DNA of 63,463 nt, filler included, from Stramenopiles sp. TOSAG23-2 (taxonomy: Eukaryota), in NCBI GenBank assembly GCA_900128395.1. It is 16 parts of 16 records of this genome, joined end to end, with 100 filler letters (N's around TTAATTAATTAA, not from the genome) between each part and the next. Parts side by side here need not be neighbours in the genome. Positions count along the whole stretch, not along the records: positions 30,663 to 34,930 come from LT650942.1; 15 more parts are not named here. One strand, written 5' to 3'. This document shows positions 21,826-51,827 of this stretch, in pieces (position 1 is the first letter of the stretch; each line of letters begins with the position of its first letter). The notes under the pieces were generated by a model. It was not told the origin of the DNA. It did no database searches and saw only the letters and a list, made by a program, of their open reading frames with translations. The position numbers were made by a program, and so were the translations under genes.

Positions 21826-21925
21826 NNNNNNNNNNNNNNNNNNNNNNNNNNNNNNNNNNNNNNNNNNNNTTAATTAATTAANNNNNNNNNNNNNNNNNNN
21901 NNNNNNNNNNNNNNNNNNNNNNNNN

Positions 21926-24900
21926 AGGACCGTGATAATCTTTGTATCTTTGATAAATTACAGAGCCTATTGGCTGCTCATTAAAGAAACATTCACCAGG
22001 CGCACCAACAGCAGCCGATATGAAATTTGGACCCCTTTTTAAGTCATCAATTGGTTCCGCTAAACGTCCGTAGAAATGAAGGGCTTTCTTAATACATTGA
22101 AATTGAGATTCTCCAGCGTTGGTAGGAACGTAAGGTATAGGAAAATCGCTCTGCGTACATGGTCTGGTCATACCATCGATCGGACATACAATACCGGTTG
22201 GACAACGGTTGCATTCACCTTCATCACGCAGTTCCCAATTTTTGGACCAAGTTCCTTGTGGGCATCCAGCACATATGACACCTGTACCAAGCCCACGCAT
22301 ACCCGTGACTTCCCCTAATAAGGAGCGAAATGTCCCTGGAGGACAAATTGTAGCAACTGCTGTCATATCATTTTCGCATTGCGTACCGGGTGGACAAGGG
22401 TAACATTGTATTGTTTCGATAGTTGGGGCATAGTAACCAGGAAGACAAGACGCAGGCTCTACAGTTCCAAGCATCTGAGCAAATGTCCCAGGTGGTGTCG
22501 GAACAGGAACTGCTGTTCCAATAGGGCAAGTAAATCCACGCGGGCATAATCCATTCCCCATGGGAGAACTGGAACCCAACTCACAGTAAAATCCCTCTGT
22601 GCATGCTTGCGCATACAGGAAATTGCCTTGTACAATTCTGTCATAGCCAACGCCACCCATACAATAAGTTCCAGGTTGACATGGATATGGACGCAACGTT
22701 GTATCATTACGAAATGGATCCGTTGTCAGCGTACCGTTTGGACAGAAGAAACCAGACGGGCATCGTGCATTAGGCGAATCTAATCCTGATTGGGAGCACA
22801 CGTATCCAGGAGGGCAAATAGCTGGATCCACACGACCGAAGCCTGGGCATATGAAACCCTCAGGGCACTTTTCGCAATTCTCCTGCCCCACCATACCATT
22901 ATATTCCCCAGGCTTGCATGGAATGGGATCCCATTGTCCGGTCCTATCACAATATGTACCAGCAGGACAACCAATTTTTACACCAAACGGGCAGTAAAAC
23001 CCTTTGGGGCATTTACCGACCCCTTTTGGATCCATGCTGCCTTCTGGACAGTACATCGATTCAAAGCATGGTTGTGGTGTTGAAAAATTTTTCATATTTC
23101 CAGCATTCACAGCAGTACCAGGATGGCAGTAAGTTCCAGGTGGGCATGGCACTGGACGGCGTAGTGCATATTGAGACGATGAGTAATCAAACACGTAATC
23201 AGACGCTGACATATTCAAGGCATCAGCCAGTGCAAAACAACTATCGTCTAAACAAAATTTACCACGAATTGGTGAAAACGGCGATGTTGGAGACAAAGGC
23301 AAAAGATGCCTCTCCATCCAAAAGCGAGCTGGATAAGGACTAATTTGCAAAGCAAAATCACTTGTTGCATTTGTCCAGCAAGCCGTATTTCTGGCACCTA
23401 AAACTAGTTTGTGACCCCGCGCCTTTTTACCTCTCCTGATAGTCGATGAACGCTCTGCATGACTTAAAGATGGGAATAATTGACTAGATGGCCTTGGCCT
23501 ACCACAGGTTGTAGCAGTTGTAGCCGTGCCTTCTAGGCAAAAATGACCTTCAGGACAAGGTTGATCAGCAATACTGATCCCTGTGACTTCACATACAAAT
23601 CCTGCTGGACATAACCTTGGAACATGCATGCCTTTATCTGGACATGCATAGCCGATTGGGCAACGAGAGCAATCTGATTGTCCTTCCTGGGCTTGGTAAG
23701 TACCCGCAGGACACAATGTAAAGTTGGAATTACCTTCCCCAGGGCAGAATGTGCCACGGGGGCATGGATATATCGCGGTAGATTCGCCAACAGGACAATA
23801 TTGACCCGTTGGACATGGGCCGGAGTAATTAAATAACTTAAAAGATGATGTATAATCAAACGCATTGTTAGTCAATTCTACATAGACATGACCAGCGGAT
23901 CCCCAACTTGCAGGCTCTCTGGAGCGACCAGCACTAGCTTGCCCCATGTTTTGAGGGTTAGAATTTCTTAGCACACCATGACGATGCTGTCCATGCTCTA
24001 ACTCTCTTGTTGGATGCATCGGCGATGCACAAAACACTAACCGCGACGTGATGAACGTGCCACGAACGGTAAAATCTCCAATGCGACATTTCAACTCAGT
24101 TGAATTAACGAAATATTTGCCCACCACGAATATGGGCGATTTACCAGTATCCCAACCAATTGGTGGATCTGGCGCTAGCTTATCTATTATCGCATCTTTT
24201 TGATACAAAAACCGTATACCGGAATCGGTGAAGTCTTGTCCATTATTGCTTATTTCAAGATGCACTAATTTAGATAAATACAATGGATAATAATGTGACG
24301 TTGGAAATAGTTTCACACTACCCGTTGTTGGATTGATACCTCTATTTTCATGGGCGACAAGAGGTTGCCAAACCATTTCACAACCACCTGGGATATTTGG
24401 TCCCATGATGTCCCCAGTACGTTTATCTATCGGCGGAATTGCACCACCGGTATAACTCTTTAAACACGGTGGGGTATAACAAATTATTTCTTTTGAACTT
24501 ACATATTCTCCAGGAACGTTGGTATCTGCAAACCTGCATGTAAGGCTAGAAACATTTGCAAAGTTTTCGCCATACACATGAACTTCCGTTCCTGCCACTT
24601 CCCCGGGACCAGAAACTGGCGTTATTCTTTCCAAAGCAAGTGGTTCGTAAAACAAAAAAGGGATTCGTTGATCAGTGTAATCTTGATCATTCACAGTTAT
24701 TTCTAAAGAATATAGACCAATTGCATATGCCGGGGTGCGACAAATAAGTTCAGCACCGTTTAGCCAAGCCGCTTGCACAATCACATCTCCGAATTTACAC
24801 TTTAATTCATCAGTCGGCAAAAAGTTTTCACCTGTAACTCTAATTGAAAAATTACCTGTGTTTGGTGCTGAGCTTGGGTAGATATTTCTAATTTTAACTC

Positions 24901-26194
24901 GAGAATCAAATGTGTACCATGCCCCGTCCGTCGATACATTCACACGGCTTCGGATTCCATTATTCGAGACCTCAAGTCTAATGCTCTTTTCGAACAAAGA
25001 CGGCGGTGAGACGCATTTGATAACAGATGAATTATAAAAGGCCGACGCAGCTACTACAGCATCCTTTCCCGTACCAAAATGACAGTGTAGCTTCGATGAA
25101 TTTTTAAAATTTTTACCGAATAAATAAATTTCAGTACCTCCATACATCGGACCATGCGTAGGCACAATCCTGTCCACGTAAATAATTGCTTGATATTCAA
25201 ACGTTACTCCACTGGAAGTGTAATCTTGATTATTTTGAGACACCTCAACAGCAACACGCCCGGTAGATAGGGTTGTTCCATTGATTAACGTTGTTACAAC
25301 GACACCCGCACTATTATTGATGGATTTATCACTTGGTGCCACAACTTCCATGCTTGGTATATTTCCAAGTTGCAGCTTCGATGAAAAGGTTACATGCCAC
25401 CAAAAAGCGTTATCACCATTTGGAAATTGAGTCACACGAATAGTTCCGATACCTGGTAGTTCTTCCAGAATAGATTTTAGCAACTGCCTAGATGCATTGT
25501 AGGGTATTGGTGCAGATATGCGCGGCTCACAAAGCGTTGGATGCGGCAGCGAACTACCATCAAGATCGAATCCTTGATACCCATTGATTGGACGGCAATA
25601 ATTCCACAATTTTAAACTGAACGTACAATTTTCTGTCGAAATACATGCATCGCTTGCATTTGATGCAATACGTTGAACCTCTCTTCTAGGCCTTAGTCGT
25701 GGAGACACACATTCAACGACTTTCTCGCTGATATAAACTGCAGTAACGATTTGATCTGCGAAACGGCAACATGACNNNNNNNNNNNNNNNNNNNNNNNNN
25801 NNNNNNNNNNNNNNNNNNNNNNNNNNNNNNNNNNNNNNNNNNNNNNNNNNNNNNNNNNNNNNNNNNNNNNNNTGTAATTTTTGAAAGGCCCACCAATGAC
25901 ACTGATTATTGTTTGACCAGTTGCTGGCCCGGAATTCGGATGTATTTCAGCAATATGTCGATGGGCTTCATAATGAAATTGGACAGTCTCACTGGTAAAA
26001 TCTTTTCCATTTACAGCGATTTCTACAGCAACACCCTTTGGCAATACAACTGGTGGAGTATGGCATCGAATTTCAAATTGTGTAGCATAGACAGCGTTCA
26101 CAACTTCTTCACCAAAAGAGCACTTCGCGGTCTCAATATCATTTGAAAAGTCTGACCCTGTAAGTCTAATTAATGTGCCACCAGCAATTGGTCC
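21926..26194 (-). CDS. Giant IPT/TIG-repeat and GCC2_GCC3 (ephrin-receptor-like) cysteine-rich protein, partial at both ends; internal 97-N gap at 25776-25872
   Basis: Repeated P.SGP..GGT...G.NF...L.C.FG and VEVS.NGQD(F/Y)T IPT motifs followed by many CP.G.YCP.G repeats. Confidence 0.85.
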
Positions 26195-30506: not shown

Positions 30507-30663
30507 TGTTTGAATTGCATACTTTACCTTTTTATAAAGCTAAAAGTAGCAAACTCAATCTANNNNNNNNNNNNNNNNNNNNNNNNNNNNNNNNNNNNNN
30601 NNNNNNTTAATTAATTAANNNNNNNNNNNNNNNNNNNNNNNNNNNNNNNNNNNNNNNNNNNNG

Positions 30664-31149
30664 GGAGGAGGCGGTGGTAGCGGCGGTGTTCGCGTACAAG
30701 GTCCAGATGGACGTGATATCAATATCAATATAAATGTAACCACATCACCAAAAGCAGGTGGTGTAAATAACATTCAATCTCAATCATTAGAAGAATCAAC
30801 AGATGATGTTGATCCATTTACCTGCCAGTTTTGTGGTCGTTACGATCCAAATTTCACTGAAGATTCATTGGATATGCATTATTGGAAAGAATGCCCAGTA
30901 TTGACTAGTTGTAGAATGTGTGGACAAGTTGTTGAAATCATGTGTTTACATGAACATATGTCGACTGAATGTGAGCACAAGGAAAAATTTAAAAGCGAGA
31001 ATGCCGGGAAATTGAAACAAATGGCAAAACAGTGCCCTTTGTGTCAAACAGTAATAAAACCATTCAATGAGGCTGGATGGAGACGTCATTTATTAAGTGG
31101 TGCTGGATGCAGTTGTAATAGCAGAACAAAGCATTTAAGTGGTCAATAA
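30664..31149 (+). CDS. CEP104: Centrosomal protein 104 C-terminal zinc fingers, 5'-partial
   Basis: CQFCG..DPNFTEDSLDMHYWKECPVL..C..CGQVVEI..L.EH..TEC and CPLC...I...EAGWRRHL. Confidence 0.85.
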   Translation, partial: GGGGGSGGVRVQGPDGRDINININVTTSPKAGGVNNIQSQSLEESTDDVDPFTCQFCGRYDPNFTEDSLDMHYWKECPVLTSCRMCGQVVEIMCLHEHMSTECEHKEKFKSENAGKLKQMAKQCPLCQTVIKPFNEAGWRRHLLSGAGCSCNSRTKHLSGQ

Positions 31150-31581
31150 AAAAAATTTAAAATTAAAAAATAATACGGTTCGTAGTGTATTTTTATCTCT
31201 TGGTTTTGTTTTTACGCACATTAACATATGTGTGTATTACTCGTCGTGTCGTAATCATTTTTAATTAATCGCGCGTGTACGAAATTAGAAGTGTACATAA
31301 TAATAAAACGAAGTCCAGTATTTTTTAAATATAATTTTTCTGGTAAATAAAAATATCAGTACTGTATCATATATTTTAATTTATTCATATTTTTTATTGA
31401 TATATATTTTATTAAAGTATTTTAAATATATATATATAAAAAAGAATGTACAGATTCATAAAAATGTGTACAAACTTCTGGTTTCTATTGCTTTCTCTTC
31501 CTCACTATATTATACTAACGTGATCGACGTCTCACCATCCTATTTTACAAAACACATACAACATGGGACACGAGATCTGAT

Positions 31582-32154
31582 CTACCAGGCATTCTCCCCT
31601 TTATCTATGATACGATTACGCGTTACAGAGCAGTTCAAACCTTGATCCCTGTTTTGTATACCATTAAAAGTACTTGAAAATTCATTTTGTACAGGGAATT
31701 TTTTATCTGGAAATTCGTGTGCAGATGGTGCTTTGTAACCTATTTCATGCGCACTAGTGGTATACATTGGATTTTGCTCTGGTGCACGGTATCCCCATGC
31801 ATTTGCTCTTGCTATACGTGTTGCCATATCTTGGTCGTTAACTTCTGGTCCACGTGCAGGTGGCATTTCAGAAGGTAAAGGTTTTGGCATGGTTTTATGT
31901 AACTCTGGATTAAACATTTCTTTATTACGCATTGGATCCATAGCTAGGGATATAAAATTTTTATTGTTTTGAATTTGTGTACCATAGTTTGAGCTGATCG
32001 TACTATAGTGATAGGTGGATGGAGTTGCTTCTTTCTCCTTTGGCACAGGTGCTTTTTTACCTGCACTTACTTGTTTTCTTGCTTCCAACGCCAATTCAGC
32101 TATTGATTTGGTTGTAGCATAAAATGGATTTGTATTTCTTGCTTTACCAGACAT
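31582..32154 (-). CDS. PIERCE1/2-family (DUF4490) axonemal microtubule-associated protein
   Basis: C-terminal GYR...QNPMYTTSAHEIG.KAPS.HEFP.K.FP..N.FS..F...RD.GLN.S pattern. Confidence 0.75.
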   Translation of the reverse strand: MSGKARNTNPFYATTKSIAELALEARKQVSAGKKAPVPKEKEATPSTYHYSTISSNYGTQIQNNKNFISLAMDPMRNKEMFNPELHKTMPKPLPSEMPPARGPEVNDQDMATRIARANAWGYRAPEQNPMYTTSAHEIGYKAPSAHEFPDKKFPVQNEFSSTFNGIQNRDQGLNCSVTRNRIIDKGENAW

Positions 32155-32601
32155 TCTGTTGTTTATTTTGTTGTAACAAATAACGTATACAATGATAATA
32201 ATAATACAATATATATATATATTAATATATGAATAGTATATTTTCTAAACACTATTATAGTTTGTTTGTATCTTTCTATTTTCTTATATTTAAAACAGAT
32301 TTATATAAAAAGTCGAATATTTTTCTAACGTATTATTTTGAGCAAAACGCCATAGATGGATTACCAGGTAGTATGGTACTGATAGGAAAATTAGACTACA
32401 TATATATAGAAGTATAAGAGGGGAATACCATTGATGAAAAATATCAGATTTATAGTTGTTTGGCACACTTCAATTTAAATTATTATTTTTGTTTTGATTT
32501 TTTACAACACACACCTTGCACTCTCTCACACTTTTCCTCTACACACACTCTCAATTAGCTACACATTTTCCAGTTTACATCCTTATATGTATATATGCCA
32601 T

Positions 32602-34786
32602 TCAACCAAATTGTTGTTGCATTGATGTAGATTTTCGCCAACCAGCAATCATTTGTTGTGTAGAAATTTCATATTTAGTACGGTCCAATGCAATTTTATC
32701 AAGTGTTATTTGACGTAGCGTTTGTTGCAATTCTTCCGGTACGTGTGGACTTATTAAATTCAAAAATTTTTCTGTATGATGTTCCTCGATGATTAAAAAA
32801 TTGGACATCGGAGTTTGATTTAAATATTCAGTATCAGTTAGAAGAGTCAAGGATAATGTTGAATCAATACCCAATTTATTTCTCAAACCTCTTTGTAACA
32901 ATTCTACATCTTCCATTCGTCGCCAATTATCAAGGCGTAATGATATCATCGTTGTTAAATCATCATCATCATCCACAATCATCGACATACCATTGCTGTC
33001 GTTGTCATTCACACGTAAAATATCACCTTTACCTAAATACCAATGTGCAACGACTCTAGGAGTCAAGTAACTTTCAATATTGTCTGGAATTTTCTTTTCA
33101 TATCGAATATAATTTGTTTTTTTATTAGAAAATTTAAATTGCCTACGAGTATTTTCTTTTTTTCGCATGAAATCGCGAAACAAGGGCTCAAAATCTTTAC
33201 TTTGCTCTGTATAGATACGATAACTTAATTTTCTGGAAAAACGTTCACCTTCTTTAAACGATATATCGGTTAAATACATATGTGGTAAACTAGACGTGAT
33301 GGTATCCATTAATTTTAACCAGTGTGTTTTAAATTTACGACCTCGATTCAAATAATTTATATTTGTTCCATATCGTTCACTAACCTTTACACCATATGCA
33401 TTTGAAACAAGTTTAAAATATGGAGCTATAGAGTGTGTTTTATATATATAATATATATATATTTTTTTGGTTAGAGAGAGATGTTTTTCGTTGGCTTTGT
33501 GGTGCTGTAAAAGAGAATTTTATTTTTTTTTTCAATAAATAGTGATACTTACCTTGGTATGCATGTTTTATTAATTCACCATCACCTAAGAAATAACCAA
33601 TTAAATTTTCATATTGTTCATTGTTAATTAAACTTTCAATATCTGGATCATCATTATCAATCATGGTCATGTTGATTATATTATTTTTATTTTTATTATT
33701 ATCAGCAATAGTTTTTTTCTGTTTCGCTTTTAGTTTAGCATATTTTTTTCTTCTCCTCATTGCTGCATAATCATATAAATCACCATTGAAATGATATTGC
33801 CTAATATTATAATCACTTGTGTACGGCAATGCGTTTGCAAATGGATACTTGTTTGTTGCATTAATACTACCACTTGCTTTGCTAGCAAGAATTGCTGATG
33901 TATTAGCTTCTGATGAGACCATACTACCATCCAGTAGTAACTCCTCATCTTTTGGTAGATTATTATGTAAGATTTCATATAAATCCATTAAATGTTTCTT
34001 ACGTTTTTTATTTCTTCCAATATTTTTCATTTTTAGCTTTGAAACACTATCATGAACAAATTTTAAAATTTGCCGGTTATAGATAGTATCATACGCTTTA
34101 CTTGTTCGAAATACAGTTGGAATCAATGGATCTTTCGTTCTATTTTGACCAATATTACCTGCAAACAAATCGACCACTGCATCCTTTCTTTTACCTAAAA
34201 GTTCACCATCTTTGTCATACAACTGTAAAGTTGGTATTGCGCGTTGTATAATCATATTTACAGAATTTAAGCGTTCTTCGTCCAGTTCTTTCCACGTATG
34301 GAATTCAATTGATTCATGTGGATTTTCAAAAGCTTCTCTTATATCGTTTAAACTATTCCTTGTTGATGGATCAGATCTTCCAGTATATATACCATCAACG
34401 GAACAAACATTACAATCATATTTAATTTCATTTATTTTACTATTATTATTATTATTATTATTATCATGCTTATGTTTCACCGTTCTCTTTTTATTTTTAC
34501 TACTTTCATCATTGGATATGCTTGTTTTTTTTATACTTCTGCCTTTAGTTAATTCCGGAGAACAAGTTACAATCAAACCAACTTCATGAAATAAATTTAC
34601 AGGCCTTAAAGCTGGTGGTTTTATATTCTTGTAGTTATTTACATTTTTCTTGTTTTTTTTCTTTTTCTTCTTATTACTTATAAGATTATTAGTATTATTT
34701 CCAGCAGCTAATATTTTCGTTGCATGATGTTGATTATTTTTATTTAAATATTTTCCAATTTTACTTGATAATTTAATACCAAGCAT
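32602..34786 (-). CDS. Nuclear-encoded double-motif LAGLIDADG (LAGLIDADG_2-type) protein, 685 aa, join(33553..34786, 32602..33425)
   Basis: Motif 1 EQYENLIGYFLGDG; then SYRIYT..S..F..L...F, KKIPDNIESYLTPRVVAHWYLGKG (motif 2), EDVELLQ.GL..KLGI; splicing 33426-33552 joins the two track ORFs in frame (2058 nt). Confidence 0.8.
33426..33552 (-). other. Spliceosomal GT-AG intron, 127 bp
   Basis: Donor CAAG|GTAAGT, branch point CTAAC, acceptor TATAG|CT; restores the reading frame (..AYQ-APYFKL..). Confidence 0.85.
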
Positions 34787-35676
34787 ATTGTTTCAATATT
34801 TGATATTTCTATTTGTTTACAACGGAAAGGGTGGTAACCTTTATTAATATATCTGTAAAGTAGTAAAGCCATATGTATGTCACCATACAACAACTAGCTA
34901 GCTACTATTATTTTCTGTTACAAATATATTNNNNNNNNNNNNNNNNNNNNNNNNNNNNNNNNNNNNNNNNNNNNTTAATTAATTAANNNNNNNNNNNNNN
35001 NNNNNNNNNNNNNNNNNNNNNNNNNNNNNNCTATATATTAATAATAACAATAATAGTATTATTAGTAGTAGTATTTATATAATAGTATTATGTATTATTG
35101 CTATTGCTATTTTTATTTTTTGTCGGCAATTTTTGTTATCAACTTAGAAAATTGCCTCTTTGAAACTTTTAAACTATTATAATAATACTATAATATAAGG
35201 ATCGAGAGAAGCCGAAAAACAAAAATCCGATGTGGTGAAAATGGCTTTTCCCTTGTATATTAATATTTGCATTTTTATGGTTCCTCTTTTTTTTTTCTAA
35301 TATTCGGATACATTATTTGTTCTTGTGCCTTCAATTACACTTTATAAAATACAAAACTGAATCCTAATCGCATGCTAATCAAATTTCTAATACGGAAGTT
35401 ATTGACGCGGCACAAAATGCATATATGGTACATTTAATAGTAATAATGTAATATTATTATTATTACTGATAATAATAGCGTATATTATACTTATGAAGTT
35501 TTTTAATTTTAACAGCATTATAATTAGAATAATAGCAGCATTATTATATTTTACTTATAATACTTCAAGATTCGGTTACTTGCAGGTTGCAGTCTTGCAG
35601 TGTGACTAATTATTATAAGATTGTGGTAAAACCAAAAAAAATGAAACCAAAAAAATCCAAAATGTTAAATTAGTTG

Positions 35677-50852: not shown

Positions 50853-51827
50853 ATGGGACAAACGACGTCAACGAAAAAGGATGAGAAGGCACTCAATGTG
50901 CCATGGGGTCCACAACTGCCAGGTGGTTCGGGTAAAAGGACATGTTTGATTACTGGAGGGAACTCAGGCCTTGGATTCGAAACAGCAAGGTCCCTTTTGG
51001 TGAAGGGATACAAAGTTATTATTGCATGCCGGAACCCGGATAAGGCAACGGAGGCGGTGGCTAAGCTGCGGTCCCTCGCCTCGCTGGACGACACAGACGA
51101 GTCCATATCGTACGAGGTGTTGGATGTCTCGAGTCTTAATTCAGTGGATAAGTTTGCAGATAAATTTTTATCCAACTCGAACAATCAGTGCCATGTTCTT
51201 ATTTGCAACGCGGGCATTATGATGGGGGCACAGCGGCAGAGCGCAGACGGGTTTGACTTGCAACTCGCTACGAACTACTTAGGGCACGTGTATCTAATCA
51301 AACGAATGCAAGAGCGTCTTGTAGAATGCGCGCCCGGGAGGATCATTCATGTCTCTTCCATCGCGGCAAGATTCGGGCATATATATTGGAACGACATTAA
51401 TTTTTTTGGCGGGGATAAGTATGATTCGTTGAAGATGTACCAACAGTCAAAGCTGCTGCAAGTCGTCTTCTCTAGAGAGCTAGCAAAACGGTTGAAAGGG
51501 ACGGGGATCACTAGTAACAGTTTAGAACCAGGCATCGTAAAGACCGGGCTGAGTGCAACAATTACAGATGACCCTGCGATGCGCCGGCGCCTGGAGAATG
51601 GGATCAGCGTCGAAGAGGGTAGCAAAACCCACGTCCATCTTGCGTCGTGTACCGATGCAAGTGTTGTTGGCATTACTGGCGAGCACCGGGAGAAATGTGG
51701 TATCATATCACAAGGCTTCTCAAAATTGAAGTATATTCTTGCAGCACACGATTTGAGGGAAAGTGTTGGTCCAAAGCTGTGGGATTTTACCGAGAAGTTA
51801 ATCGAGGATGCGCGAAAAAAAAGCTAA
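50853..51827 (+). CDS. Short-chain dehydrogenase/reductase (retinol dehydrogenase/WWOX-like)
   Basis: ITGGNSGLG, IACRN, LICNAGIM, ATNYLGH, VSS, YQQSK; possible N-myristoylation site MGQTTS. Confidence 0.92.
   Translation: MGQTTSTKKDEKALNVPWGPQLPGGSGKRTCLITGGNSGLGFETARSLLVKGYKVIIACRNPDKATEAVAKLRSLASLDDTDESISYEVLDVSSLNSVDKFADKFLSNSNNQCHVLICNAGIMMGAQRQSADGFDLQLATNYLGHVYLIKRMQERLVECAPGRIIHVSSIAARFGHIYWNDINFFGGDKYDSLKMYQQSKLLQVVFSRELAKRLKGTGITSNSLEPGIVKTGLSATITDDPAMRRRLENGISVEEGSKTHVHLASCTDASVVGITGEHREKCGIISQGFSKLKYILAAHDLRESVGPKLWDFTEKLIEDARKKS

Follow-up and report, generated by a model that had tools for sequence, protein, structure and literature searches.

We describe here a two-exon gene carried on the minus strand of a 63,463-nucleotide stretch of DNA from Stramenopiles sp. 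TOSAG23-2 (GCA_900128395.1; sixteen parts joined end to end, referred to below as the window), which lies at 32602..34786 in the part taken from record LT650942.1 and encodes a 685-aa protein ending in a double-LAGLIDADG domain. That the gene is nuclear and belongs to a flagellated marine eukaryote with an AT-rich genome, and that its product is a domesticated homing-endonuclease derivative, is well supported. By analogy with known derivatives of this kind we favour a role as a mitochondrially imported, maturase-like RNA splicing or processing cofactor, to which we would give a probability of roughly 45%. The recruitment of homing endonucleases by their hosts has been documented in few cases (among them HO, WhiA, OTP51 and the intron-encoded maturases), and the window gene is apparently a further and independent domestication, found in protists and marked by an N-terminal domain that is new and by a distinctive replacement of Asp by Lys.

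An earlier note on this DNA, made from the sequence alone, had proposed that two open reading frames (ORFs) are joined through a canonical 127-bp intron into a protein of 685 aa, and this is borne out by the translation of the joined exons, which gives a coding sequence of 2058 nt with a single stop at its end in the standard code, as well as by the junction in RNA (see Table 1 for feature coordinates). A TGA lies in frame two codons 5' of the ATG (also in the stop-to-stop ORF in L001, a locus of the window species). Part of the gene stretch is present in 20 public runs from eight studies, 12 of them recorded as RNA, and all of the labelled runs (16/20) are marine or seawater; our RNA evidence consists of the assembled contigs from four of these runs (X1, X2, X3 and X10) which were aligned to the stretch. 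The spliced junction was seen without mismatches in two of the four, X2 and X3, which belong to separate studies. One contig from X2 (oligo-dT cDNA, record 14) spans 33553..34026 and 33377..33424 with one letter between them, and one from X3 (record 21) spans 33283..33424 and 33553..33600, again with one letter between. As a repeat mask covers 33425–33475 in the contig alignment, the single letter at the junction is left unplaced, and the X2 and X3 contigs therefore lack exactly 33426..33552, the interval which the earlier note had given for the intron. The intron region had no coverage in X10. The gene is transcribed and the 127-nt intron is removed.

The junction is also backed independently by three relatives. 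The sister-species locus L002 has a 113-nt GT..AG intron at the identical codon position and in the same phase, with a sequence unrelated to that of the window intron, and its orthologous exon 1 terminates at the same position; the full-length proteins P0026 and P0027 run uninterrupted across the junction (...VKYHPSQHPYFKLTSNAYG...) and have no intron at this site.

We note that the TA-rich intron (33426..33552) differs in length within the species. P0039 (728 aa) was considered as a transcript-derived full-length form of the protein and rejected: it represents an allele with an in-frame, stop-free intron that adds a 43-aa insert, and it offers no evidence of splicing. For an allele of this type, a retained intron would not truncate the protein. 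It should also be noted that a run of Lys codons at 34644..34672 (AAG/AAA repeats on the coding strand) collected 31-mer RNA contigs by the thousand, all unrelated, as well as false joints, and the RNA depth over 34606..34686 is a meaningless low-complexity artefact.

The LAGLIDADG identity of the C-terminal part was recovered by several methods. The exon 2 protein alone reached 36.3 bits with the Pfam family LAGLIDADG_2 (PF03161), for which the curated cut-off is 25 bits, and the same family was matched at 31.2 to 49.8 bits by the relatives P0012, P0013, P0007 and exon 2 of L002; no Pfam family was matched by the fragment P0009. I-SceI was the best PDB sequence match of the exon 2 protein, and a search of PDB with the family profile returned I-SceI (E 9.5e-12) and I-WcaI (8.9e-10) with both motifs in register and the second half-domain aligned over ~110 residues with I-SceI. 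When the AlphaFold model of P0012 was submitted to Foldseek, the matches listed were exclusively LAGLIDADG proteins, including I-WcaI (1.1e-7) and I-SceI (2.7e-6), with target-normalised TM-scores (template modelling scores) of 0.52 to 0.56, as well as the bI3 maturase (2ab5; 8.3e-4) and WhiA (3.6e-3); for this low-confidence model, the alignments cover almost the whole I-SceI chain. The C-terminal part is thus an I-SceI-type monomeric double-LAGLIDADG domain, with two helices and two alpha/beta half-domains in one chain, as the double architecture and the PF03161 match anticipated in the earlier note would have it.

We take D44 and D145 of I-SceI to be its catalytic pair. In the alignment to I-SceI the Asp of motif 1 (LIGYFLGDG) stands opposite D44, and the Lys of motif 2, which had been correctly read as HWYLGKG, stands opposite D145. 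All five lineages of the family (described below) have Lys at the position of D145, and at that of D44 they have D, D, S, N and N, with Asp kept in the window species and in L002. This comparison shows that the first acid is dispensable across the family. Of the two conserved motif-end acids of an active LAGLIDADG homing endonuclease, the protein accordingly lacks the second, and the family taken as a whole has lost the first too; the gene is not mobile and is not found in a group I intron, intein or organellar genome, as active endonuclease genes are. We infer that double-strand breaks are probably no longer made and that the protein would bind nucleic acid in a sequence- or structure-specific manner. 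The earlier note had allowed either a loss of cleavage or a nicking-only activity, and here its first suggestion is favoured over its second: given the motif 2 Lys in all five lineages and a motif 1 acid replaced by S or N in three of the five, loss of cleavage is the better reading than a nickase.

The ~390-aa N-terminal part, judged on its sequence, is without detectable relative outside the family, in agreement with its description as a unique extension. A Pfam search at E up to 1 found no pentatricopeptide repeat (PPR) or other family in the N-terminal 411 aa, and the N-terminal part had no NCBIfam match; matches in the PDB profile search were confined to the LAGLIDADG part, with none for the N-terminal part; and the ESM Atlas gave no usable match for P0001 (exon 1), those for P0012 residues 1–225 being at chance level (0.76 to 0.77). 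In the full-length relative P0012, too, PF03161 is the sole Pfam match. The family-specific N-terminal domain can nevertheless be followed through the family alignments by its conserved blocks (Y-x-C-N-x-C-S, FHTW-x-ELDEERL, IIQRA, KDP-x-IP, AYDT and GDLY-x-Y), and a Cys-x2-Cys knuckle is kept wherever the N-terminus is present; the adjacent His is not kept and we do not claim a zinc site. Ahead of this domain is the basic, acid-free leader that had been noticed earlier, with 15 K+R in residues 1–60, no D or E before residue 68, and a hydrophobic moment of 0.48 over residues 3–20, and in which computation of composition and hydrophobicity found no signal-peptide-type hydrophobic segment. Homopolymer runs occur at residues 39–44 (poly-Lys), 109–115 (the poly-Asn tract already remarked upon) and 563–567 (poly-Asp). 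The possibility that the N-terminal extension is a hidden second LAGLIDADG pair was rejected: when the exon 1 alignment was compared by hhalign with one of LAGLIDADG proteins, motif 1 was all that matched.

An exhaustive profile search of 1,835,955,588 protein representatives (E up to 0.001) returned 11 matches, comprising eight family members and three ordinary LAGLIDADG_2 proteins which are only weakly similar to the family (E 5e-6 to 5e-4). When cluster members and metagenome loci are counted with the search matches, the family has five lineages: the window species (L001 and the P0003 cluster), its sister (L002, L003, P0004 and P0006), a third with proteins of 629–634 aa and no intron at this site (P0007, P0026 and P0027), a fourth with proteins of 504 aa (P0012 and P0018), and a fifth represented by P0013. 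The sole name given to the family clusters is 'hypothetical protein', and relatives were found on contigs of 197,725 and 105,064 bp. One further protein, P0008 (423 aa, from a 1559-bp contig), consists of a lipoprotein-like N-terminal part of bacterial appearance fused to the final ~100 residues of the LAGLIDADG protein and is most likely the product of a chimeric metagenome contig.

The window gene and L002 are 56% identical over 640 aligned codons, with non-synonymous (dN) and synonymous (dS) divergences of 0.32 and 1.30 (dN/dS ~0.25), and dN is far under dS in all 100-codon blocks. Variants among the RNA contigs amount to 13 synonymous changes over 401 sites and 10 non-synonymous changes over 1654 sites, giving a within-species ratio (pN/pS) of ~0.19. 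By these estimates the gene is shown to be under purifying selection, and the orthologues with dN/dS below 1 for which the earlier note had advised a search are at hand. Compared with the slower gene for the ciliary Piercer protein on the same contig (dN 0.057 and dS 1.15 between window and L002), the LAGLIDADG gene is fast-evolving but constrained. Its relative synonymous codon usage has a correlation of 0.92 with that of the other window ORFs, and its GC content at third codon positions (GC3) is 0.20. A LAGLIDADG match, splicing and expression, and conserved orthologues were all found, the absence of any of which had been named beforehand as telling against the proposal.

Comparison with known systems places the protein closest to I-SceI and I-WcaI, whose genes sit in yeast mitochondrial rnl group I introns. 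It shares with them PF03161 and both LAGLIDADG helices in register, and they are its best fold matches, but here a spliceosomal intron interrupts a nuclear gene, the protein has the additional N-terminal part, the residue at D145 is Lys and D44 is not conserved. In PMC2647301 and PMC9275481, intron-encoded LAGLIDADG maturases such as the bI3 maturase and I-AniI are described as kept by selection for a non-cleaving role which benefits the host, and maturase activity alone is said to be retained by some LAGLIDADG proteins (PMC9275481). The bI3 maturase and I-AniI are encoded in mitochondrial DNA (mtDNA) inside the intron that they serve, as is expected of a LAGLIDADG maturase, whereas the window gene lies in the nucleus, outside any such intron, and has its affinity with the I-SceI group; RNA binding would be attributed to it by analogy. 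OTP51, which according to the same source (PMC9275481) is nuclear, has two LAGLIDADG motifs and splices a plastid intron (ycf3 intron 2), resembles the window gene in being nuclear-encoded and in carrying its two LAGLIDADG motifs behind an N-terminal extension, although its role on organellar RNA can serve here as an analogy only and its extension consists of PPR repeats, of which the window protein has none. No OTP51-like protein was present among the 11 matches of the exhaustive search, which argues for an independent recruitment.

HO still cleaves and is intein-derived, and WhiA has a C-terminal helix-turn-helix (HTH). The window protein differs from both in having no Pfam family besides PF03161, and hence no intein or HTH family, but shares with them its standing as a host gene of LAGLIDADG-endonuclease descent (for yeast HO, see PMC8393795), and WhiA structures were among the fold matches. 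The nearest case in the literature searched is that of Ustilago maydis, into whose nuclear genome a homing endonuclease gene, its active site mutated, has come from the mitochondrion; according to PMC7593156 it is a recent, strain-specific GIY-YIG insertion with no detectable transcription. The window gene, in contrast, is a LAGLIDADG gene that is spliced, expressed, found in five lineages and under purifying selection. The literature searched gave no description of a nuclear LAGLIDADG gene of this sort, and nothing relevant on LAGLIDADG proteins and the mitoribosome.

In the explanation we favour, the I-SceI-type scaffold would have been kept as a nucleic-acid binder that makes no double-strand breaks, and the basic, acid-free and amphipathic N-terminus would direct the protein to the mitochondrion. 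There it would most likely act as a maturase-like splicing or processing cofactor on organellar RNA, in effect a nuclear replacement of an intron-encoded helper, and the new N-terminal domain may supply extra binding or partner contacts. Mitochondrial import is proposed because of the amphipathic basic N-terminus, the lack of a signal-peptide segment and the organellar habit of the parent family, and the RNA role is suggested by the known fates of splicing-only maturases and of nuclear OTP51. A more specific history would begin with a helper of a group I intron that a lineage of uncultured marine flagellates transferred whole from the mitochondrion to the nucleus. The I-SceI-type gene would then have acquired a spliceosomal intron, and its product a presequence, a new domain of 300 aa and the invariant Lys in place of the catalytic Asp; the protein would now be imported and act as an RNA-specific maturase on mitochondrial introns that have no ORF. 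This history seems to us unlikely, but were it true, group I introns would have in this protein their first nuclear-encoded LAGLIDADG maturase, and the LAGLIDADG_2 branch its first maturase.

Several observations weigh against an imported RNA cofactor. The N-terminal composition and hydrophobic moment fit a presequence, yet residues ~1–20 and an RPVNLFHE motif are conserved between lineages, which is unusual for a presequence that is cleaved, and the KKKKKKNKK tract of the leader is like a nuclear localisation signal. Those maturases that have been characterised are of the LAGLIDADG_1 group and not of the I-SceI group. With an invariant Lys where the metal site used to be, the central DNA-binding saddle is probably still in use, which a DNA binder would fit at least as well as a maturase. 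The structure prediction called for in the earlier note was only partly successful: Foldseek found the LAGLIDADG fold, but the AlphaFold models of two full-length relatives have mean pLDDT (predicted local distance difference test) values of 43.7 and 46.4, with ~58 to 89 in the LAGLIDADG part, and as both means are below 50 we draw no structural conclusion for the N-terminal domain. Finally, a contig from X1 passes from exon 1 into the intron (33476..34388), and represents either unspliced RNA or DNA carry-over.

Some of these points would be accommodated if the protein were instead a non-cleaving, or at most nicking, sequence-specific DNA binder, with mtDNA or nuclear DNA as its substrate and a part, for instance, in transcription, in the control of recombination or in the upkeep of mtDNA. 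This is the main alternative, one that we regard as possible, though we would adopt it only tentatively. The Lys found at the D145 position in all five lineages offers a positive charge for possible contact with phosphates; the nearest relatives with solved structures, I-SceI and I-WcaI, are enzymes that act on DNA; and WhiA, a bacterial LAGLIDADG-derived DNA-binding regulator, is among the fold matches. The resemblance of the Lys/Arg-rich tracts to nuclear localisation signals and the motif 1 Asp kept in the window species and L002 are also consistent with such a role. However, with S or N in place of that acid in the three other lineages, nicking is ruled out as the conserved function, neither Pfam nor NCBIfam found an HTH, NUMOD or zinc finger in the N-terminal part, and the N-terminus is more presequence-like than nuclear, although a function on mtDNA would be compatible with that. 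Far less probable than either a mitochondrial RNA cofactor or a DNA binder is that the sequence is no functional host gene at all but a NUMT (nuclear mitochondrial DNA segment) or pseudogene, a chimera made in assembly, or a gene belonging to a contaminant or a giant virus. This had to be considered because the window is stitched from small contigs, the relative P0008 is an obvious product of a chimeric contig, and giant viruses can also yield AT-rich, intron-poor and ankyrin-rich contigs. Against it are the 685-codon frame, open in the standard code, the spliced junction in RNA contigs, the purifying selection seen both between and within species and a codon usage resembling that of the other window ORFs, all of which agree with the earlier argument that the gene is no recent NUMT. 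The ciliary Piercer gene is moreover present on the same contig, as it is in L002, and no relative turned up in pattern-based scans of viral contigs, making a viral origin unlikely. The least probable explanation, and one we would hardly entertain, is a selfish homing endonuclease gene, still active and mobile in the nuclear genome: the double-LAGLIDADG fold is complete and the motif 1 Asp is kept in the window species, but the catalytic Asp of motif 2 has been replaced by Lys, there is no second copy of the gene within the window, and its place beside the Piercer gene is fixed in two species at dS >1. A dN/dS of ~0.25 over the whole length, and a location outside any group I intron or intein with a spliceosomal intron of its own, likewise do not fit a selfish element.

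The family is a clean natural experiment in the re-use of a DNA-cutting scaffold, in which an invariant Lys has come to occupy the former metal site and the first acid is dispensable. It adds a new N-terminal domain without relatives, and the gene, being defined and expressed, is open to cloning and testing. Should the protein turn out to be an imported maturase, it would demonstrate that the helpers of group I introns can reach the nucleus in the way that the group II maturases of plants have done. If it is a DNA binder, it would provide a natural scaffold for a non-cleaving meganuclease.

Table 1. Positions of the LAGLIDADG gene, its parts and the features of its contig in the window.
Feature	Position	Strand	Basis or remarks
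5' untranslated region, at least 64 nt	34787..34850	-	X2 contig (record 19) unbroken over 34643..34850
Exon 1, codons 1–411 and base 1 of codon 412, 1234 nt	33553..34786	-	Translation (P0001); ends in phase 1
Spliceosomal intron, 127 nt, phase 1	33426..33552	-	GT..AG (GTAAGT...TAG), CTCTAAC branch-like site; RNA contigs
Exon 2, bases 2–3 of codon 412, codons 413–685 and stop (32602..32604)	32602..33425	-	Translation (P0002)
Basic, acid-free leader, residues 1–60, with N-terminal amphipathic helix, presequence-like	34607..34786	-	Composition, hydrophobic moment
Family-specific N-terminal domain, ~residues 119–394	33605..34432	-	Conserved blocks in family alignments
LAGLIDADG motif 1, LIGYFLGDG, residues 395–403	33578..33604	-	In register with I-SceI 27–57 and motif 1 of ordinary LAGLIDADG_2 proteins
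Pfam LAGLIDADG_2 match, residues 515–602 (P0002 103–190)	32854..33117	-	PF03161, E 6.8e-9, 36.3 bits
LAGLIDADG motif 2, HWYLGKG, residues 539–545	33025..33045	-	Aligned residue by residue to I-SceI; Lys codon AAA 33028..33030
Piercer of microtubule wall (PIRC1/2) gene, ciliary protein	31582..32154	-	Pfam PF14892, 41.5 bits; downstream, same contig
Real contig with the LAGLIDADG gene	30663..34930	.	Both ends are N44-TTAATTAATTAA-N44 linkers
Linkers	4336, 8726, 13115, ... 62288	.	Six-frame-stop N44-TTAATTAATTAA-N44 joints of a pseudo-molecule

The contigs of the window, which are ~4.3 kb each and shorter towards the end, are chained in order of descending length by the linkers listed in Table 1, and as a result the true context of the LAGLIDADG gene is limited to its own contig. 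ORFs across a linker from this contig are not neighbours and adjacency there is not biological. Within the contig, the order and orientation of the LAGLIDADG and Piercer genes are identical to those in L002, and the Piercer proteins are 90% identical. This comparison of synteny concerns the downstream side, as the window contig stops short of the region matching L003 1..4534, where the sister species has a 952-aa ORF without a Pfam family and an alpha/beta-hydrolase ORF upstream of its LAGLIDADG gene.

The remaining window contigs carry ordinary eukaryotic genes (ankyrin/TRAF, TIG, PI-PLC, KATNIP-like DUF4457, WD40/EML and kinase genes). A short-chain dehydrogenase ORF at 50853..51827 (+) has a GC3 of 0.54, its codon usage correlates at only 0.14 with that of the other ORFs, and it could be a transferred gene or part of a chimeric contig; the DUF1826 ORF on the same 4.25-kb contig (48767..49903) has a GC3 of 0.20. 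A 1407-aa ORF rich in IPT/TIG domains occupies 21878..26101 (-), on a contig in which the GC content of 22001..24000 is 0.47 compared with a window mean of ~0.32.

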